Source of the DNA: Escherichia phage e4/1c
Sequence record: NC_024210.1
DNA: 47,112 bases
Strand: one strand, 5' to 3'
The notes under the pieces are model-generated. The model searched no databases and was not told where the DNA came from. It saw only the letters and a program-made list of their open reading frames with translations. The translations under genes and the position numbers were made by a program. Shown in pieces: positions 22,020 through 43,613 of this stretch; position 1 is the first letter of the stretch; the number at the start of each line of letters is the position of its first letter.

Positions 22020-22982
22020 TTAGTAGAAGTTTGGTATGAATGGTAGAGCCATTGATATGTTTGTATCGAATGGGAATTGTGCGCCAGTTTGAGTTGAATA
22101 GTTACCTATAACAGTACCAGGAACGGCTCTAACTGAACCGCCAGACATGCAAACACCCTTGTATCGTAAGTTATTATAGCCACCAGTGACTCTAGTTGTC
22201 GCTCCGCATCTAAGTATTGGGAAGAACCCACCATTAACTGACTGGTAACCATTACTAATCTGCATGAATCCACTTAGAACAAATGGCCTCCTGACGCTAG
22301 AGAAAACTATCTGCCCAGCGCTGTTTGATATCGTTAAACCCGGACCAGCTACTGGAGGTGTATTATTGAAAATAACCAACTGAACGTAAGTACTTGCAGC
22401 AACATCATCAATCCCATTGTACGTTATATCCCTGCACCATATCGTACTACCATCACTTTCAAGGGATACGTTTGGGTTATCCCATTTACCAAAAGGAATG
22501 CCGCCAACTGGCAATGATGCAGAGCCATTAACCTGGATACCACCAACCCAAGCAGCAGTCATTAATCTGGAATTGCTTGATATCGCTGTAAAGTCAGTCG
22601 AGTTCTCAATAAGGACACCAGGGCTTGATTGTGAGGATGCTGGTAAAATCTCAAAGCACTGACCGCCAAACTGTAATATGCGACCATTAGCACCGTTAAA
22701 GTTACTTAATGTAATCCTTCCAACCCCATCGTTAACCTTCGAGAACCCATTCATGTAATAAACTTCTGGTATAACATCATATGCATCAACATAAACAGCC
22801 TGAGTTGGCAGGCAGAATGCTGTTGAGCCAGGAGTCATAGTCAAACCGAAATCCCATGATGATGCTGGTGAGCTTAACCCACTAGTGTTTATTGAACCAG
22901 TCACGGCTGGGACTCTCAAACCCGCCGTTATTTCCATTGGCGGCCTTCCATCATTCAAATCTATCAAGATACCCTGAGGCAT
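22020..22982 (-). CDS. putative receptor-binding protein (RBP)
   Basis: 320 aa from ATG 22982 with RBS AAGGAG; Gly/Ser/Thr/Asn-rich beta-type protein; located downstream of J on the opposite strand and translationally coupled to a lipoprotein gene. Confidence 0.45.
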   Translation of the reverse strand: MPQGILIDLNDGRPPMEITAGLRVPAVTGSINTSGLSSPASSWDFGLTMTPGSTAFCLPTQAVYVDAYDVIPEVYYMNGFSKVNDGVGRITLSNFNGANGRILQFGGQCFEILPASSQSSPGVLIENSTDFTAISSNSRLMTAAWVGGIQVNGSASLPVGGIPFGKWDNPNVSLESDGSTIWCRDITYNGIDDVAASTYVQLVIFNNTPPVAGPGLTISNSAGQIVFSSVRRPFVLSGFMQISNGYQSVNGGFFPILRCGATTRVTGGYNNLRYKGVCMSGGSVRAVPGTVIGNYSTQTGAQFPFDTNISMALPFIPNFY

Positions 22983-23227
22983 TATTTCCACTCCTTAGAT
23001 CCGTGATCTGCAACTGAACCGCCGTAGCCTCCACCAACCTTTGACTCAATACCAGCATAACGAATATCAACCTCTCCAGCTGGAACAATAACGCCACCTT
23101 TCCACTTAGCTACGCATACACCAGAGGCCTGAGTTGCACACCATCCGTCAGGGCGCGGGCCAGAAGAACAACCTACTGTCATTATTACTGCTGTTGCGAT
23201 GATTGCTGATTTGATGAATTTGGTCAT
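22982..23227 (-). CDS. Cor/Llp-like superinfection-exclusion lipoprotein (putative)
   Basis: 81 aa; N-terminal [20 protein letters not shown] signal with lipobox-like VGC, Ser at +2; stop overlaps RBP start. Confidence 0.5.
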
Positions 23228-23267
23228 TTTGTATTCCTTATTAAGTATGTTTCGTTTCGATGGAGTA

Positions 23268-23311
23268 ACTATAGCAAAGGCCGATGCGGGAGTCTTTAGC
23301 AAATCGTGCTA
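23268..23311 (-). promoter_or_regulatory. palindrome-type promoter unit for lipoprotein-RBP operon
   Basis: minus-strand TAGCACGATTTGCTA (23297-23311), 23 bp, TATAGT, then CCATCGAAACGA leader. Confidence 0.5.
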
Positions 23312-23315
23312 TTTG

Positions 23316-23470
23316 ATATACGCGTAACCGATGTAACTCGATGTATACAATCTAATCCGAGGAAAATTGTATACGCTTTTTACGCGAGGATACGCATTAG
23401 TTACATTTATAAATCCTTATATATTAAGGGTTTAGAGTATTATTATTATTATATATATTACTATGTATAT
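23316..23470. repeat. regulatory repeat region A (homologous to 43180-43330)
   Basis: shares TATACGCGTA... and a near-identical 60-bp segment ATCCTTATATAT.AAGG..TTAGA.TATTATTATTATTATATATA with region B. Confidence 0.7.
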
Positions 23471-23760
23471 CTTGTAACTAATCTCTATAGCTATGTTGGT
23501 ATGTTTTTCTAAAAGACTATGTTTGATTTCCTGTTAAGGAGTAGATGCATATAGATATAGATATGGTGCAAAAGTGGTGGATACATTGGTTACAAGAGTT
23601 ACACTCAGCATCCATGCGGCGCACAGAGTTGCAAAGCGTATTCAGGTGCGTTTTACGTAGATATACAGATAGCTTTTTTGGTTTATTAATGAGCATTTAT
23701 TGGCAATTAAAGCGGTAGTTAATATCAATATTGCTACCTTGATTGCTAATGCCTGGCATG

Positions 23761-23804
23761 CGGTCAATAAAAATGTTGACTGTACGGTCAATAAAAATGT
23801 TGAC
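23761..23804 (+). promoter_or_regulatory. tandem 20-bp operator-like repeat (CGGTCAATAAAAATGTTGAC x2)
   Basis: two identical copies separated by 4 bp; each contains inverted arms GTCAA/TTGAC; second copy provides the -35 of the early promoter. Confidence 0.6.
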
Positions 23805-23828
23805 CGATTGAAATTTTTTCAGTAAATT
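23800..23828 (+). promoter_or_regulatory. sigma70-type early promoter (TTGACC, 17 bp, TAAATT)
   Basis: canonical spacing; followed by TCATCGATACGAG leader and gene at 23864. Confidence 0.6.
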
Positions 23829-23863
23829 TAGCTCATCGATACGAGCATGGGGTACGGCAGGAA

Positions 23864-24235
23864 ATGAGATTAACAAAGATTGAGATTATGAAGGTTTTAT
23901 CAGGCCATCCTGATTACGAATTTAAGTTATGGGAGGTTGGGGGCTTACCGATAGAGGCTAGAGATCTTTCTTATATAATGTTTGGTCACGAGGAAGGTGG
24001 AAAGAAGTCAAAAATGACTTGTTGTAAGCAAGCTCTAGATAGGATGGTAAATGATGGTTATCTGGAGTCGTCAAAGGTAACTATAAAACCACATACAGTT
24101 GATAACAGAAGCATGAGGGCGACTGTAAGCAGGTACAGAGTTAAGGGCTCTAACATTAGTTGGTTTAAGAAAACTGACGAATTTGCGAAGTGCAGAGAGA
24201 TAACGCTAACTAAAGAGGATTACAAAAGTGAGTAA
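23864..24235 (+). CDS. hypothetical early protein (123 aa)
   Basis: first gene downstream of early promoter; possible DNA-binding fold not confirmable. Confidence 0.5.
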   Translation: MRLTKIEIMKVLSGHPDYEFKLWEVGGLPIEARDLSYIMFGHEEGGKKSKMTCCKQALDRMVNDGYLESSKVTIKPHTVDNRSMRATVSRYRVKGSNISWFKKTDEFAKCREITLTKEDYKSE

Positions 24236-24806
24236 AGACATGATTTCAATTGTTGATTATTGCAACGCTTTATCATTTAAGCCAGCATTAGTTATTAAGG
24301 CTATAGAAGAAATTATTTGCTTTGATAAAGGAAGCCTCGCTGAGTGGGTTGATGGGATTTGCTTTATGAACAAAAGATTAATGATAGCCGTAACAACAAA
24401 GATCGATACTTCAAAGATTTATCTGGTGCTTGATTATATGGATAGGGTTGAGTCTGAGGTTAAAGATAGATTCAACACAATGGTTCAACTAAAAATTGAG
24501 AATGCAGTGGCGAGAGTTAATAATCAGCTAGCAATTGAAATGGCTCATAGTGAGCGACTTCATAAGCAGGCTGATATCTACTACAAGCAATTATCAAGAC
24601 TTGAGAGCAAGAAAACTACAGCAGAGTGCGTAAAGGAAGCTAACGCATCAGAACGCCAGGCATGGAACGATAGATGCAATGAACGCGAGGATGTCTTAGT
24701 CGCTAGGGCAAACATTCAGTCTCTTGAGCAAAAGGAGAAGATACTTCTTGCTAGTTCTGGTATTTCGTACCAATCAAGAGAATTCCTGGCTATAGGTAAA
24801 AACTAA
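24228..24806 (+). CDS. hypothetical early protein (192 aa), coiled-coil C-terminus
   Basis: overlapping start (GTG 24228 with RBS AAGAGGA, or ATG 24240). Confidence 0.5.
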   Translation: MSKDMISIVDYCNALSFKPALVIKAIEEIICFDKGSLAEWVDGICFMNKRLMIAVTTKIDTSKIYLVLDYMDRVESEVKDRFNTMVQLKIENAVARVNNQLAIEMAHSERLHKQADIYYKQLSRLESKKTTAECVKEANASERQAWNDRCNEREDVLVARANIQSLEQKEKILLASSGISYQSREFLAIGKN

Positions 24807-24879: not shown

Positions 24880-25074
24880 ATGGCATACTTCATTATTCAA
24901 GAGCGCAACAATCCTATTTTCGGCACAGTCTACTATTGCGAGGATGGATCTGGATACTGCGACCACAAAGCTGATGCTAAGCGGTTCGATACGAAAGCTG
25001 AGGCTATGGAGTGGGGTAGCATCAACGATGAAGAGTTGGGTGGCATTGTTAAAGTGATTAAGGTTAAGGAATAA
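24880..25074 (+). CDS. hypothetical protein (64 aa)
   Basis: RBS GAGAGAGA; precedes exonuclease. Confidence 0.5.
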   Translation: MAYFIIQERNNPIFGTVYYCEDGSGYCDHKADAKRFDTKAEAMEWGSINDEELGGIVKVIKVKE

Positions 25075-25077
25075 ATC

Positions 25078-26046
25078 ATGAGCTTCAAGGTTTACACTAA
25101 CGATGAGTTAACCAATGAAGCCTACCATCAGGAGTCAGATCATGTGTCTGGTTCTGGTCTGGCTCACATTTTCTCAACTTGCCCAGCTGCACACAAGTTC
25201 TCTGAGCATGATGACGAGAGTAAGGCACTTAAGTTTGGTACGTTGGCCCACACGGTAATTCTTGAGAACTCTGCGTTCGACGCAACTTATTACCGGCAAC
25301 CAGCGCAGGAAGAGTTTGAAGACCTGATCACCAGCAAGACTGCATTAGCCGCAAGACTTAAGGCGATGGGAATTACAGGCACATCAGGTAAGGATTACCC
25401 TGAATTAATGGAGATGCTGACACTGACCGGTGAATCACTAAACGTATGGTGGGATATCCAGCGATCTAGCGAGGTTAAAGCTGAAGCCCGAGAGATTGTA
25501 TCAGCTAAGGACTTTGACACCGTACAGGCTATGAGAGAGGTTCTATGCGGCATTCCTGCTTACAATGCCATAGTTAACAGTAAAACCGCTCAGCGAGAGT
25601 TATCAATCTTCGGTGAGATTAATGAGTGCGGAGTTAAGGTAAGGCTGGACCATGTTGATGTTGTTGGTGATAAAGTTGTGATCACAGATTACAAGACAAC
25701 ATCAGACGCATCTCCTGAATGTTTTGGTAGGTTGGCGGCTAACTATGGCTACTTGCTTAAGATGAGTTTACAGCGCGATCTATTTGTGCGTGCGTTCAAT
25801 GAGAAGCGCAAGGTTGTTGTCCAGTTACTGGCTCAGGAGAAAAAGGCACCATACCTTCCAATGCTTTACACATTATCAGATGCGCACATTGCTTTAGGTC
25901 GCAGGCAGTATATGGAAGCATTGGCAACATACAAACAGTGCAAGAAGTTTAATGTCTGGCCCGGTTACAACGCAATTGAGGATTCTATGGAGTTGCAGGT
26001 TCCAGAGTTTTATATGAAGAAATACGAAAACAGCACGAATAGCTAA
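25078..26046 (+). CDS. PD-(D/E)xK-type exonuclease (recombination exonuclease)
   Basis: 322 aa; motif VRLDHVDVVGDKVVITDYKTT; directly upstream of Erf. Confidence 0.6.
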   Translation: MSFKVYTNDELTNEAYHQESDHVSGSGLAHIFSTCPAAHKFSEHDDESKALKFGTLAHTVILENSAFDATYYRQPAQEEFEDLITSKTALAARLKAMGITGTSGKDYPELMEMLTLTGESLNVWWDIQRSSEVKAEAREIVSAKDFDTVQAMREVLCGIPAYNAIVNSKTAQRELSIFGEINECGVKVRLDHVDVVGDKVVITDYKTTSDASPECFGRLAANYGYLLKMSLQRDLFVRAFNEKRKVVVQLLAQEKKAPYLPMLYTLSDAHIALGRRQYMEALATYKQCKKFNVWPGYNAIEDSMELQVPEFYMKKYENSTNS

Positions 26047-26073
26047 AACAACATTAAATCGGTGAGGTATATT
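26031..26073 (+). promoter_or_regulatory. degenerate palindrome-type promoter unit upstream of erf
   Basis: CAGCACGAATAGCTA (overlaps exonuclease C-terminus), 22 bp, TATATT, then CCTCATCGACAACGAGAGGA. Confidence 0.4.
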
Positions 26074-26101
26074 TACCTCATCGACAACGAGAGGAAGAAA
26101 T

Positions 26102-26749
26102 ATGAAGACTTCGGAAAGTAATAAGTCAGTTTTACAGGCGCTTTTTAAGGCCCGCACAGGCTTCGCTAAGGCGGCAAGAGACAAGCAAAACAGTCACCTT
26201 AAGAATCGATACGCTACACTTGACTCCATGCTGGAGGCCGTAGTGCCAGCGCTTGATGACAATGACTTAATGATTATGCAGAGTATGTTAGAGACATCAA
26301 CTTCTGATAATCTTAATGTCGAAACAACTCTTTATCACGTTTCTGGTGAGTGGGTTAGCTTCTTTATGATTATGCCGATTGTTAAGAAAGACCCGCAAGG
26401 CGTAGGCTCAGCATTCACATATGCACGACGCTACTCATTGGCCGCAGCGCTTGGAATTAGCCAATCAGACGACGATGCTCAGATGGCGGTTAAGAGTGTA
26501 AAGGACTGGAAGCGAGAAGTAGAGAAGGCAGAGACTCGCGATGAACTTGTAGAGGTTTACAAGGCATGTAAATCACAAGCCGATGCCGCAACATGGGGTA
26601 TCGTTGAGAAAGCTATCATCGAAAAGCTAGCTGAGATAAAAATGGCATCAGCAAGTGGCTTCAACCCAGCAAAGCCTAAAGAAGTAACTAAAGTTGTTGC
26701 AAATGCACCGAGTGAGGCTGTAGAATCACAATCAATAGAAAAGTTCTGA
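26102..26749 (+). CDS. erf: ERF-family single-strand annealing protein
   Basis: 215 aa; motif GSAFTYARRYSLAAALG characteristic of Erf-type recombinases. Confidence 0.75.
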   Translation: MKTSESNKSVLQALFKARTGFAKAARDKQNSHLKNRYATLDSMLEAVVPALDDNDLMIMQSMLETSTSDNLNVETTLYHVSGEWVSFFMIMPIVKKDPQGVGSAFTYARRYSLAAALGISQSDDDAQMAVKSVKDWKREVEKAETRDELVEVYKACKSQADAATWGIVEKAIIEKLAEIKMASASGFNPAKPKEVTKVVANAPSEAVESQSIEKF

Positions 26750-26790
26750 ATTAATCGGGGCTTCGGCCCCAGAATAAAACGATAGTCATT

Positions 26791-27294
26791 ATGGCTGGAT
26801 ATATAAAGTACGATGATTTCTCAAAGTACTTGCATTTAGATAATGATGGTGATTTGTGCTGGAGCGTAAGCGTAAAATCATCTAAAGTTGGTAAGATGAA
26901 AGGCTCACCTGACAATTACGGTTATAAGCATTTTCACCTATTTGGAAAGAGATGGAAATTTCATAGAGTAATATACTGCCTACATAACAAGTGCGACCTA
27001 GATAGCTCAATTGAGGTTGACCATATTGATTTAGATAAAAGCAATAACAAACCATCAAATTTAAGAATTGCATCAAGGCACGATAACCAACAGAATAGAG
27101 GTAAGAATAAAAACAACACTAGCGGATACAAGGGAGTTTGCTTTCATTCAAAAACTGGCTGCTACTTTGGTAGAGTCTTGTTTGATGGCAAGGTTTACTC
27201 AACCAAATACCACAAACTAGAAGTAGATGCACACAAAGAACTTTGCAAAATCAGATCTAAATTTAAATCAACTTATGTAAACAACGGAGAATAA
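26791..27294 (+). CDS. HNH-AP2 homing endonuclease (intact)
   Basis: 167 aa; HRVIYCLHNKCDLDSSIEVDHIDLDKSNNKPSNLR (HNH) followed by NTSGYKGVCFHSKTGCYFGRV (AP2-like). Confidence 0.8.
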   Translation: MAGYIKYDDFSKYLHLDNDGDLCWSVSVKSSKVGKMKGSPDNYGYKHFHLFGKRWKFHRVIYCLHNKCDLDSSIEVDHIDLDKSNNKPSNLRIASRHDNQQNRGKNKNNTSGYKGVCFHSKTGCYFGRVLFDGKVYSTKYHKLEVDAHKELCKIRSKFKSTYVNNGE

Positions 27295-27295
27295 G

Positions 27296-27718
27296 ATGCA
27301 TACTTTAACTGGAAATATCCGCAAAGCGCCTTTCACAAAGACTGGGGAAAACAGTAAAGGCCAGTGGAAGATGTATAAGGTTGAACTTTCAGAGTCATAT
27401 AAAAATAAAGAAGGTGAAAGGAAATACACAAATTACTCAGTAACATTTTTTGCCAGTGAAGCGCAGATTAGTTGGTATGACGAAGCATTTCAGGAAGGTA
27501 AGGTTATCTCTGTGAGCGGTGACTCATTAGCAGTTAACGAGCGGGAACATAATGGTAAGTCATATATTACACTTGAGTTGCAGAATCCGCGATTGATGTT
27601 TAGCCAGCGAGGCGGGGAATTAGCACCACAGCAACAACAACAGCAACCACAGCAACAGCAGCGACAGCAGCCACAGCAACAAAGCCGATTTACTGAAGAA
27701 GATGATATCCCGTTCTGA
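27296..27718 (+). CDS. ssb: single-stranded DNA-binding protein
   Basis: 140 aa; OB-fold-like N-domain, Gln-rich linker, acidic tail EEDDIPF (canonical SSB C-terminus). Confidence 0.85.
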   Translation: MHTLTGNIRKAPFTKTGENSKGQWKMYKVELSESYKNKEGERKYTNYSVTFFASEAQISWYDEAFQEGKVISVSGDSLAVNEREHNGKSYITLELQNPRLMFSQRGGELAPQQQQQQPQQQQRQQPQQQSRFTEEDDIPF

Positions 27719-27728
27719 TGTAAAATAT

Positions 27729-27752
27729 AAAGCCCCTTTCGGGGCTTTTTTT
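27729..27752. terminator. bidirectional terminator between ssb and tail fibre gene
   Basis: agcccc-tttc-ggggct flanked by A-run upstream and T7 downstream. Confidence 0.7.
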
Positions 27753-43179: not shown

Positions 43180-43330
43180 TATACGCGTAGTCCGCTGTCT
43201 ACCGATTGTCGACCGTATCCAGATTTACATTTGATACGCCTTGATACAATCCATATACATTAAAACATCCTTATATATAAAGGACTTAGACTATTATTAT
43301 TATTATATATAGTATTATGTATATATGGCG
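43180..43330. repeat. regulatory repeat region B (homologous to 23316-23470)
   Basis: TATACGCGTA plus 60-bp near-identical AT-rich segment shared with region A. Confidence 0.7.
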
Positions 43331-43545: not shown

Positions 43546-43574
43546 TTGATATACACGTATCTACTTGCTATAGT
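43546..43574 (+). promoter_or_regulatory. sigma70-type early promoter (TTGATA, 17 bp, TATAGT)
   Basis: canonical spacing; followed by CCATCGAAACG leader and gene at 43614. Confidence 0.6.
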
Positions 43575-43613
43575 CACTCCATCGAAACGCGATAAAAAAC
43601 GAGAGGAATTAAA

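Follow-up and report, generated by a model that had tools for sequence, protein, structure and literature searches.

Tandem 24-bp repeats at a sigma-70-type promoter of Escherichia phage e4/1c: a candidate operator pair in a variable regulatory cassette

The locus and its variable cassette

Escherichia phage e4/1c is a virulent T1-like Rogunavirus (Drexlerviridae), and the neighborhood studied here is 89% identical to Rogunavirus genomes such as BECP10, AHP42, AKS96, Rogue1, and others. The window, meaning the whole 47,112-nt stretch of DNA that was analyzed (NC_024210.1), contains a large divergent intergenic region between a minus-strand and a plus-strand gene set, and the tandem repeats and the promoter described below sit within it (Table 1). 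The operon downstream of the promoter encodes a 64-aa ORF, a RecE-like PD-(D/E)XK nuclease, an ERF recombinase, an HNH endonuclease, and a gene annotated as SSB in relatives. The insertion points of the HNH endonuclease genes differ by lineage (window 26791-27294; L017 4215-4703), which is further mosaicism of the recombination block. A literature search found nothing on e4/1c itself or on transcription start sites in the Drexlerviridae.

Table 1. Positions of the features at and around the repeat-bearing promoter in the window.
Feature	Position	Strand	Basis or remark
cor-type lipoprotein gene	22982-23302	-	PF24052 (Pfam)
Variable regulatory cassette, 1.13 kb	23674-24803	+	Hairpin, tandem repeats, promoter, ORF123, ORF192
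Long imperfect hairpin	23700-23749	+	RNA fold; just after the stop of the small ORF 23545-23718
Repeat unit 1, 24-mer CATGCGGTCAATAAAAATGTTGAC	23757-23780	+	Lineage-specific core 23762-23774 (-73 to -61)
Repeat unit 2, TGTACGGTCAATAAAAATGTTGAC	23781-23804	+	Core 23786-23798 (-49 to -37)
-35 hexamer TTGACC	23800-23805	+	TTGACC in L017, TTGACA in L019
-10 hexamer TAAATT	23823-23828	+	TAAATT in L019; TATCTT, preceded by TGT, in L017
Start site and initial transcribed sequence CATCGATACGAG	23834-23845	+	Conserved; predicted start A23835
ORF123, orphan 123-aa protein, predicted winged helix	23864-24235	+	Candidate repeat binder
ORF192, 188 aa from ATG 24240	24240-24806	+	Second candidate binder
Remaining operon downstream of the promoter	24880-27718	+	Pfam; relatives' annotations
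Bidirectional intrinsic terminator, operon end	27729-27748	both	
-10 starts of the phage-wide module	23823, 34456, 35833, 43569	+	
-10 starts of the phage-wide module	23273, 41303, 42262	-	
18-mer starts of the 21-nt repeat	2175, 26030, 30492, 32022, 34418, 35109, 35795, 37268, 44701, 45600	+	
18-mer starts of the 21-nt repeat	23312, 41342, 41540, 42300, 42988	-	

Alignment with AHP42, BECP10, and Rogue1 revealed near-identity from the cor gene through GATATACAGATAGC (23660-23673), after which similarity was lost completely; homology resumed at TAATAGGCAAAACC (24804 onward), where the last cassette gene has its stop codon. In Rogue1, AHP42, and BECP10 this slot is filled by a 21-nt-repeat promoter, a leader hairpin, and the rha gene, and most relatives carry rha and a different promoter. 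The promoter of the relatives consists of a 21-nt repeat variant, ATAGCACGAATAATCAAA, with TATAGT 20 nt further on; of the ancestral repeat, e4/1c retains no more than the five initial bases (ATAGC, 23669-23673), at the left cassette breakpoint. No other carrier of the cassette was detected by blastn and tblastn among 50,697 phage records, and tblastn found no coding sequence for ORF123 or ORF192 in them. The long hairpin near the left end of the e4/1c cassette has no U-run and its sequence is not conserved in L017 or L019; it is possibly an insulator or a terminator-like element. In Rha-type relatives (L001 3176-3244, L003 3170-3240), a GC-rich hairpin comes very soon after the variant 21-nt repeat, the 20 nt, and TATAGT; in AHP42 this hairpin is succeeded by a U-run and was annotated as a terminator by the AHP42 authors. 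A leader attenuator is one possibility for the GC-rich hairpin, a short RNA preceding rha another.

The non-coding DNA to the left of the cassette (23303-23673) is almost invariant among Rogunavirus relatives, whereas its flanks diverge, and it is rich in short repeated motifs (GTAAC/GTTAC and G/T-ATAC). It may be a regulatory hub or an origin; for T1-like phages, an origin has been reported as not found (PMC7718038). A 9-bp inverted repeat pointed out by the initial annotation, GTATACAAT/ATTGTATAC, is present in this DNA, with its arms at 23343-23351 and 23366-23374, upstream of the leftward cor promoter. Its arms are invariant in e4/1c, AHP42, BECP10, Rogue1, L017, and L019, while the 14-15-nt loop is variable, so that the arms look to be under selection, as a hairpin or as a protein-binding site. 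The remark on a (TATAGA)x3 run also holds: ATATAG occurs 2.7 times at 23549-23564, where it forms the first codons of a small plus-strand ORF (23545-23718; 57 aa, phrog_30596) with a strong Shine-Dalgarno sequence, AAGGAG. This ORF reaches into the variable cassette with its 3' end, which in the relatives overlaps the rha promoter of the 21-nt-repeat type. A 58-bp element at 23413-23470 recurs in the same orientation, with 90% identity, at 43267-43324 in another large divergent intergenic region. It contains a dyad, CCTTA-TATAT-TAAGG, followed by (ATT)n and TATATA. Its neighbors are alike in the two regions, with a leftward 21-nt-repeat promoter on one side and a rightward sigma-70-type promoter on the other.

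The promoter and the phage-wide start module

The proposed -35 hexamer TTGACC, 17-bp spacer, and -10 hexamer TAAATT are present as claimed, and they agree with sigma-70 usage in a -35 close to TTGACA, a 17-bp spacer in all three lineages compared below, and a -10 with A2 and T6. However, agreement with the sigma-70 consensus at 9/12 positions is too common to be significant alone. Five such sites were counted between 22000 and 25000 against 8.6 expected, and 29 against 43.9 expected between 22000 and 41999. Since promoter-like matches are fewer than in shuffled DNA, the case for the promoter must rest on other evidence, namely the conservation of -35, 17-bp spacing, -10, and start in three lineages, membership in a phage-wide module, and the concerted variation of the repeat cores.

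The phage-wide module, TAnnnT-N5-CATCGAnACG, occurs 7 times in the window against 0.19 expected, always ahead of a gene block. The stretch 23823-23843 fits it as TAnnnT-N5-CATCGAAACG, with the sequence TAAATT-TAGCT-CATCGATACG; the start is accordingly predicted at A23835 from the spacing and from the CATCGA context common to the seven sites. A literature search for the string CATCGAAACG returned unrelated primers only. Five of the seven module promoters have no -35 and instead carry AAATAGCACnnnTTGCTAAAG about 20 nt upstream of the -10. A sigma-70 -35 is found in only two, the promoter at 23800-23828 and TTGATA-17-TATAGT at 43546-43574, and these two are thus the best candidates for first use by unmodified host polymerase. 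T1-like phages are held in the published view to encode neither an RNA polymerase nor a sigma factor. The second promoter (43546-43589, plus strand) reads TTGATA-17-TATAGT-CACTC-CATCGAAACG. An A-tract precedes its -35 closely, and it has no tandem repeats like those at 23757-23804; it heads a block of small ORFs from 43614, the first of which encodes a DUF7174 protein. The initial annotation had called the promoter near 23835 the main early one. Early use is plausible, but with a second promoter of the same type in the window the word main is unproven, and the promoter heads the rare cassette and the recombination operon rather than the whole early region.

A 21-nt intergenic repeat has been described for TLS, T1, Rtp, and Rogue1, with its function listed as an open question (PMC11447400). 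In the window this repeat, ATAGCACnnnTTGnTAAA, has 15 copies against 0.66 expected. A -10-like TAnnnT follows 14 of the 15 copies at a distance of 19-21 nt, and in most of those 14 a start sequence related to CATCGAAACG comes 5-6 nt later, followed by a Shine-Dalgarno sequence and an ATG. None of the 15 has a -35 hexamer at 17 bp, and the palindrome of the repeat, TAGCA-N5-TGCTA, is centered near -42. This pattern suggests that the 21-nt repeat is the upstream element of a factor-dependent promoter class. Upstream of 23823, ATAGCACnnnTTGnTAAA is absent at the corresponding distance of about 20 nt from the -10.

A similar start also occurs elsewhere. In IMG/VR, TTGAC-N18-TAnnnT-N5-CATCGAAACGAG was found in 40 viral contigs (L022-L061), mostly of T1-like size and some of 70-360 kb. 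Several of these (L037, L038, and L052, and L043 with four copies) have 8-9-bp direct repeats that are specific to the contig, stand at about -46 and -21, and recur every 25 bp; L022, L030, and L058 have co-varying spacer palindromes (ATAACCGAT..ATCGGTTAT versus ATAACCACT..AGTGGTTAT). Operator-bearing promoters with a start of the CATCGAAACGAG type may be common. This start resembles the initial transcribed sequences of T7 A1 and A3.

The tandem repeats in three lineages

The 20-mer CGGTCAATAAAAATGTTGAC stands twice in tandem, at 23761-23780 and 23785-23804, exactly as first described. The true period of the repeat is 24 bp, and the TGTA that appeared to be a spacer between the 20-mers is part of a GTAC element conserved in related lineages. 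Unit 2 abuts the core promoter and ends within it, the 3' end of the unit being the first five bases of the -35 hexamer. No third copy of CGGTCAATAAAAATGTTGAC was found in the 47-kb window at up to three mismatches, and 100 shuffles gave 0 matches. The available DNA likewise holds no extra operator copies or half-sites for the repeat of any lineage, which indicates a local, autoregulatory circuit.

DNA was compared for three lineages: e4/1c, P0002 (L017 and L018), and P0004 (L019 and L020). L021 starts inside the gene and so lacks the upstream region, and P0003 is represented by its protein only. All three lineages have a direct repeat of two copies with a 24-bp period, copy 2 ending at the -35 hexamer. 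The units and promoters are CGGTCAATAAAAATGTTGAC twice with TTGACC-17-TAAATT in e4/1c, CGGTCGTTGTTTTTGTTGGT and a second unit ending in GAC with TTGACC-17-TATCTT (TGT before the -10) in L017, and GTACTGTAGTCGAAAAG twice with TTGACA-17-TAAATT in L019. When the units are compared as 24-mers ending at TTGAC, positions 6-18 form a core in which 13 of 13 positions are identical between the two copies in every genome. Between lineages, 11 of the 13 core positions differ, all of them concordantly in both copies, and core identity is 5-6/13, which is near random. The pairing score of copy 1 with copy 2 is 60 for the native pairs and 38-46 for every mismatched pairing. Within a genome, the copies differ only outside the core, at positions 23-24 in L017 and at positions 19 and 22 in L019. 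That the cores were kept identical while the flanks drifted makes a recent neutral duplication less likely. Part of this concordance could also come from slippage or gene conversion, as forms of concerted evolution.

The segments around the repeats behave differently. Between lineages, identity is 5-6/6 for the -35 hexamer, 6-8/17 for the 17-bp spacer, 4-6/6 for the -10 hexamer, and 11-12/12 for the 12 nt from 23834 (CATCGATACGAG), where the conserved initial transcribed sequence is CATCGA(A/T)ACGAG; it is 3-5 of 17-18 for the rest of the leader and 4-8/17 for the DNA upstream of the repeats. In the sequences at hand, this segment pattern is the footprint to be expected of a functional promoter with lineage-specific operators.

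The symmetry of the units fared less well in the comparison. The inverted arms GTCAA/TTGAC noted at first are present in both e4/1c copies, each unit being a dyad (CGGTCAATA/TGTTGACCG) whose right arm includes the -35, and the dyad of copy 2 is longer than first described (CGGTCAATA-AAAA-TGTTGACCG). As a general feature, however, the arms do not hold, since they are lineage-specific: the dyad is absent in L017 and differently placed in L019. As single-stranded DNA, the e4/1c repeat pair folds far better than shuffles (z = -5.1), against z = +0.6 in L017 and -2.1 in L019; the RNA fold of 23700-23870 gave z = -6.1 relative to shuffles. As far as the three lineages tell, the conserved property is direct 24-bp repetition and not inverted arms.

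A putative operator pair and its known counterparts

The two genes that follow the repeats encode proteins with no family assignment; neither ORF123 nor ORF192 matched Pfam, PHROGs, NCBIfam, PADLOC, or PDB sequences. For ORF123, a winged-helix fold is predicted with moderate model confidence (pLDDT 64.6), and a Foldseek search against the PDB gave no significant match (best E = 0.06). An exhaustive HMMER search (1.84 billion representatives) and a profile search (5.8 billion clusters), together with pattern scans of viral, metagenome, and genome contigs for more cassette carriers, defined the ORF123 family as four protein clusters: e4/1c, P0002 (74% identical), P0003 (54%), and P0004 (43%). 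All four occupy the same slot of Rogunavirus-like contigs of about 47 kb; a fifth match was discarded as a spurious repeat protein. The low-confidence model of ORF192 (AF2 pLDDT 57.9, N-domain below 50) has a small N-terminal helix-helix-beta-hairpin domain and a coiled coil of about 115 residues. In L019 this protein is split into a 61-aa N-domain, 32% identical to that of e4/1c, and a 125-aa C-domain of about 75% identity (P0008). Homology between ORF192 and Rha, the protein replaced, was looked for and not found.

Sites and protein change together: the cores are altered at 11 of 13 positions and the ORF123 proteins are 74% and 43% identical, in three lineages only. On balance, we therefore favor the interpretation that the two 24-bp units are a co-evolving operator pair for an autoregulator encoded by the cassette, probably a repressor. 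ORF123 is the most likely binder. The N-terminal domain of ORF192 also co-varies with the repeats and thus stays a predicted alternative, and because only three lineages have DNA, co-variation does not separate the two. Under this interpretation, host RNA polymerase would use the TTGACC-17-TAAATT promoter without phage factors, starting at about A23835, and transcription would cover ORF123, ORF192, and the recombination genes up to the terminator. As ORF123 built up, two protein units would fill the tandem sites from -73 to -61 and from -49 to -37 (counted from the inferred start A23835), and the bound protein would disturb polymerase contacts at or just upstream of the -35. The operon would thereby be turned down by negative autoregulation. 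Where transcription starts, which protein binds, and whether it represses are inferred.

The sign is where the strongest competitor enters. The initial annotation had proposed a repressor-controlled promoter, and comparison supports a sigma-70-type promoter behind two operator-like repeats at the head of a rightward operon, but the copy 2 core stops short of the -35, which leaves repression likely without being certain. The same operator pair might be an activator site, with the cassette protein at about -43 and -67 in positive autoregulation of the class II/class I type. We consider this unlikely. The copy 2 core leaves the -35 uncovered and is centered near -43, a position also used by class II activators, which counts against our own preference for repression; at the other promoters of this phage a 21-nt repeat centered at about -42 replaces the -35, so that the phage family does employ factors there. 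On the other hand, the -35 is consensus-like (TTGACC, TTGACC, and TTGACA) and conserved in three lineages at the optimal 17-bp spacing, while activator-dependent promoters normally lack such a -35 at such spacing. The promoter therefore appears to need no activator, and repression is favored. In e4/1c, moreover, the dyad arm includes the -35 bases themselves.

It is also rather improbable that no dedicated regulator exists and that the A/T-tract of each unit is an UP-like element, duplicated to strengthen or tune a constitutive early promoter. Each of the three lineages does have an A- or T-tract at about -42 to -38, ATAAAAAAT closely precedes the -35 of the sigma-70-type promoter at 43546 as well, and promoters of the AAAAATGTTGACA type occur in unrelated phage contigs. 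Yet UP-like elements leave unexplained the 13 contiguous positions that are identical within each lineage and near-random between lineages; non-A/T positions (GGTC and TGTAGTC) are copied too, and a 24-bp period is out of helical phase.

There is a small chance that the repeats are bound by another protein, either a host factor or a conserved phage protein, and not by the cassette product. AHP42, AKS96, BECP10, and UDF157lw carry AAACAAAAATGTTGAC-TGTA-CGGTCAATAAAAATGTTGACCG between the rha stop and the shared TAATAGGC boundary, and thus keep copy 2 (41/42 bases) downstream of rha in the absence of ORF123 and ORF192. The element amounts to 1.6 repeat copies without ORF123 (L001 4050-4100, L002 4047-4097), from which it follows that a site can persist without the proposed binder. 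Its copy 2 is identical to that of e4/1c, its copy 1 lacks the left half, and there is no -10 at 16-18 bp; it is probably a scar of cassette exchange, or a recombination relic. Against a conserved binder stands the divergence of the cores to 5-6/13, which such a protein would not tolerate; apart from the cassette, this relic is the one place where the repeats occur, and it has no -10. An exact 18-mer scan of IMG/VR gave 13 matches, all in unrelated contexts, and their homology was rejected since AAAAATGTTGAC is there only an A-tract and a -35.

We give little credence to the view that the repeats have no function and are a tandem duplication, or a scar left by recombination where two modules meet, homogenized by slippage. 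The repeats do lie in a mosaic cassette, and the AHP42 group has a partial copy at a different junction; however, exactly two copies with the same period and position are found in three lineages whose non-coding flanks are unalignable, and copy differences are confined to the unit flanks. Two tandem promoters, as the first reading of paired promoters had it, or hairpins acting as a terminator or attenuator for upstream transcription are very hard to sustain. Copy 1 does carry TTGACT, and a 9-11-bp hairpin can be drawn from each e4/1c unit. Yet no -10 stands 16-18 bp after copy 1, and in L017 and L019 its TTGAC has become TTGGT and TTTAC. A terminator, an attenuator, or a structured RNA was rejected in view of a structure that lacks conservation (z = +0.6 in L017), a U-run, and any Rfam match (23200-24300 searched). 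Iterons of a replication origin with an initiator were rejected as well; iterons usually number three or more beside an initiator gene in an essential, group-wide element, whereas there are only two copies here, in a dispensable cassette absent from nearly all relatives.

If the repeats are an operator pair for a cassette-encoded autoregulator, the locus is a compact, testable switch of about 80 bp of DNA and one or two small proteins, for which three natural specificity variants are on hand for swaps. The regulation of T1-like phages is almost unstudied, and published promoter predictions were made by consensus only. The recombination operon is wired in two ways in otherwise collinear phages. 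A wider proposal, which we regard as speculative and unlikely, is that strictly virulent T1-like phages swap control cassettes at the head of the recombination operon (a factor-dependent 21-nt-repeat promoter with rha versus a host-type promoter with a co-evolving tandem operator and an orphan winged helix) and that the cassette of e4/1c is an immunity-like specificity module. If so, it would shift the recombination functions to immediate-early expression and might affect relatives in the same cell by acting in trans. How promoters are built around the 21-nt repeat will probably interest more readers than the tandem repeats.

Among known systems, the lambdoid OR region has near-identical tandem sites at a sigma-70 early promoter whose first gene encodes a small DNA-binding protein (here a predicted one), and related phages differ in site sequences as specificity types. 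The center-to-center distance of OR1 and OR2 in lambda is 24 bp, as for the e4/1c repeats. In contrast, e4/1c is virulent, lacks a divergent repressor gene, and has two sites only, both upstream of the -10; its lineages conserve direct repetition and not dyad symmetry; and ORF123 is predicted to be a winged helix instead of a Cro/cI fold, with no detectable homologs outside the four clusters. The operator of the P2-type repressor C consists of two direct repeats about two helical turns apart at an early promoter. It resembles the e4/1c pair in its two direct repeats with a period of about 22-25 bp and in a sequence that varies among related phages, but the P2 half-sites lie within the core promoter, whereas the e4/1c sites are both upstream (-73, -49). 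No protein homology was found between P2 repressor C and the cassette proteins.

The T1-like 21-nt repeat, aaATAGCACnnnTTGnTAAAA, is the other upstream element at promoters of this phage (TLS paper, PMC11447400), and a variant of it stands where the e4/1c cassette begins in Rha-type relatives. The two arrangements differ in that the cassette promoter has a true -35 and lineage-specific tandem repeats, and their sequences are unrelated. As in OmpR/PhoB systems, a winged helix (predicted here) would act on head-to-tail repeats at or over the -35 region. The OmpR/PhoB tandem repeats recur every 10-11 bp and stand in for an absent -35, whereas the e4/1c period is 24 bp, the -35 is consensus-like, and ORF123 lacks a receiver domain. 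On the reading favored here, the e4/1c locus would be a new instance of a well-known type of gene switch, placed in a virulent phage within a cassette that is orphan and very rare.
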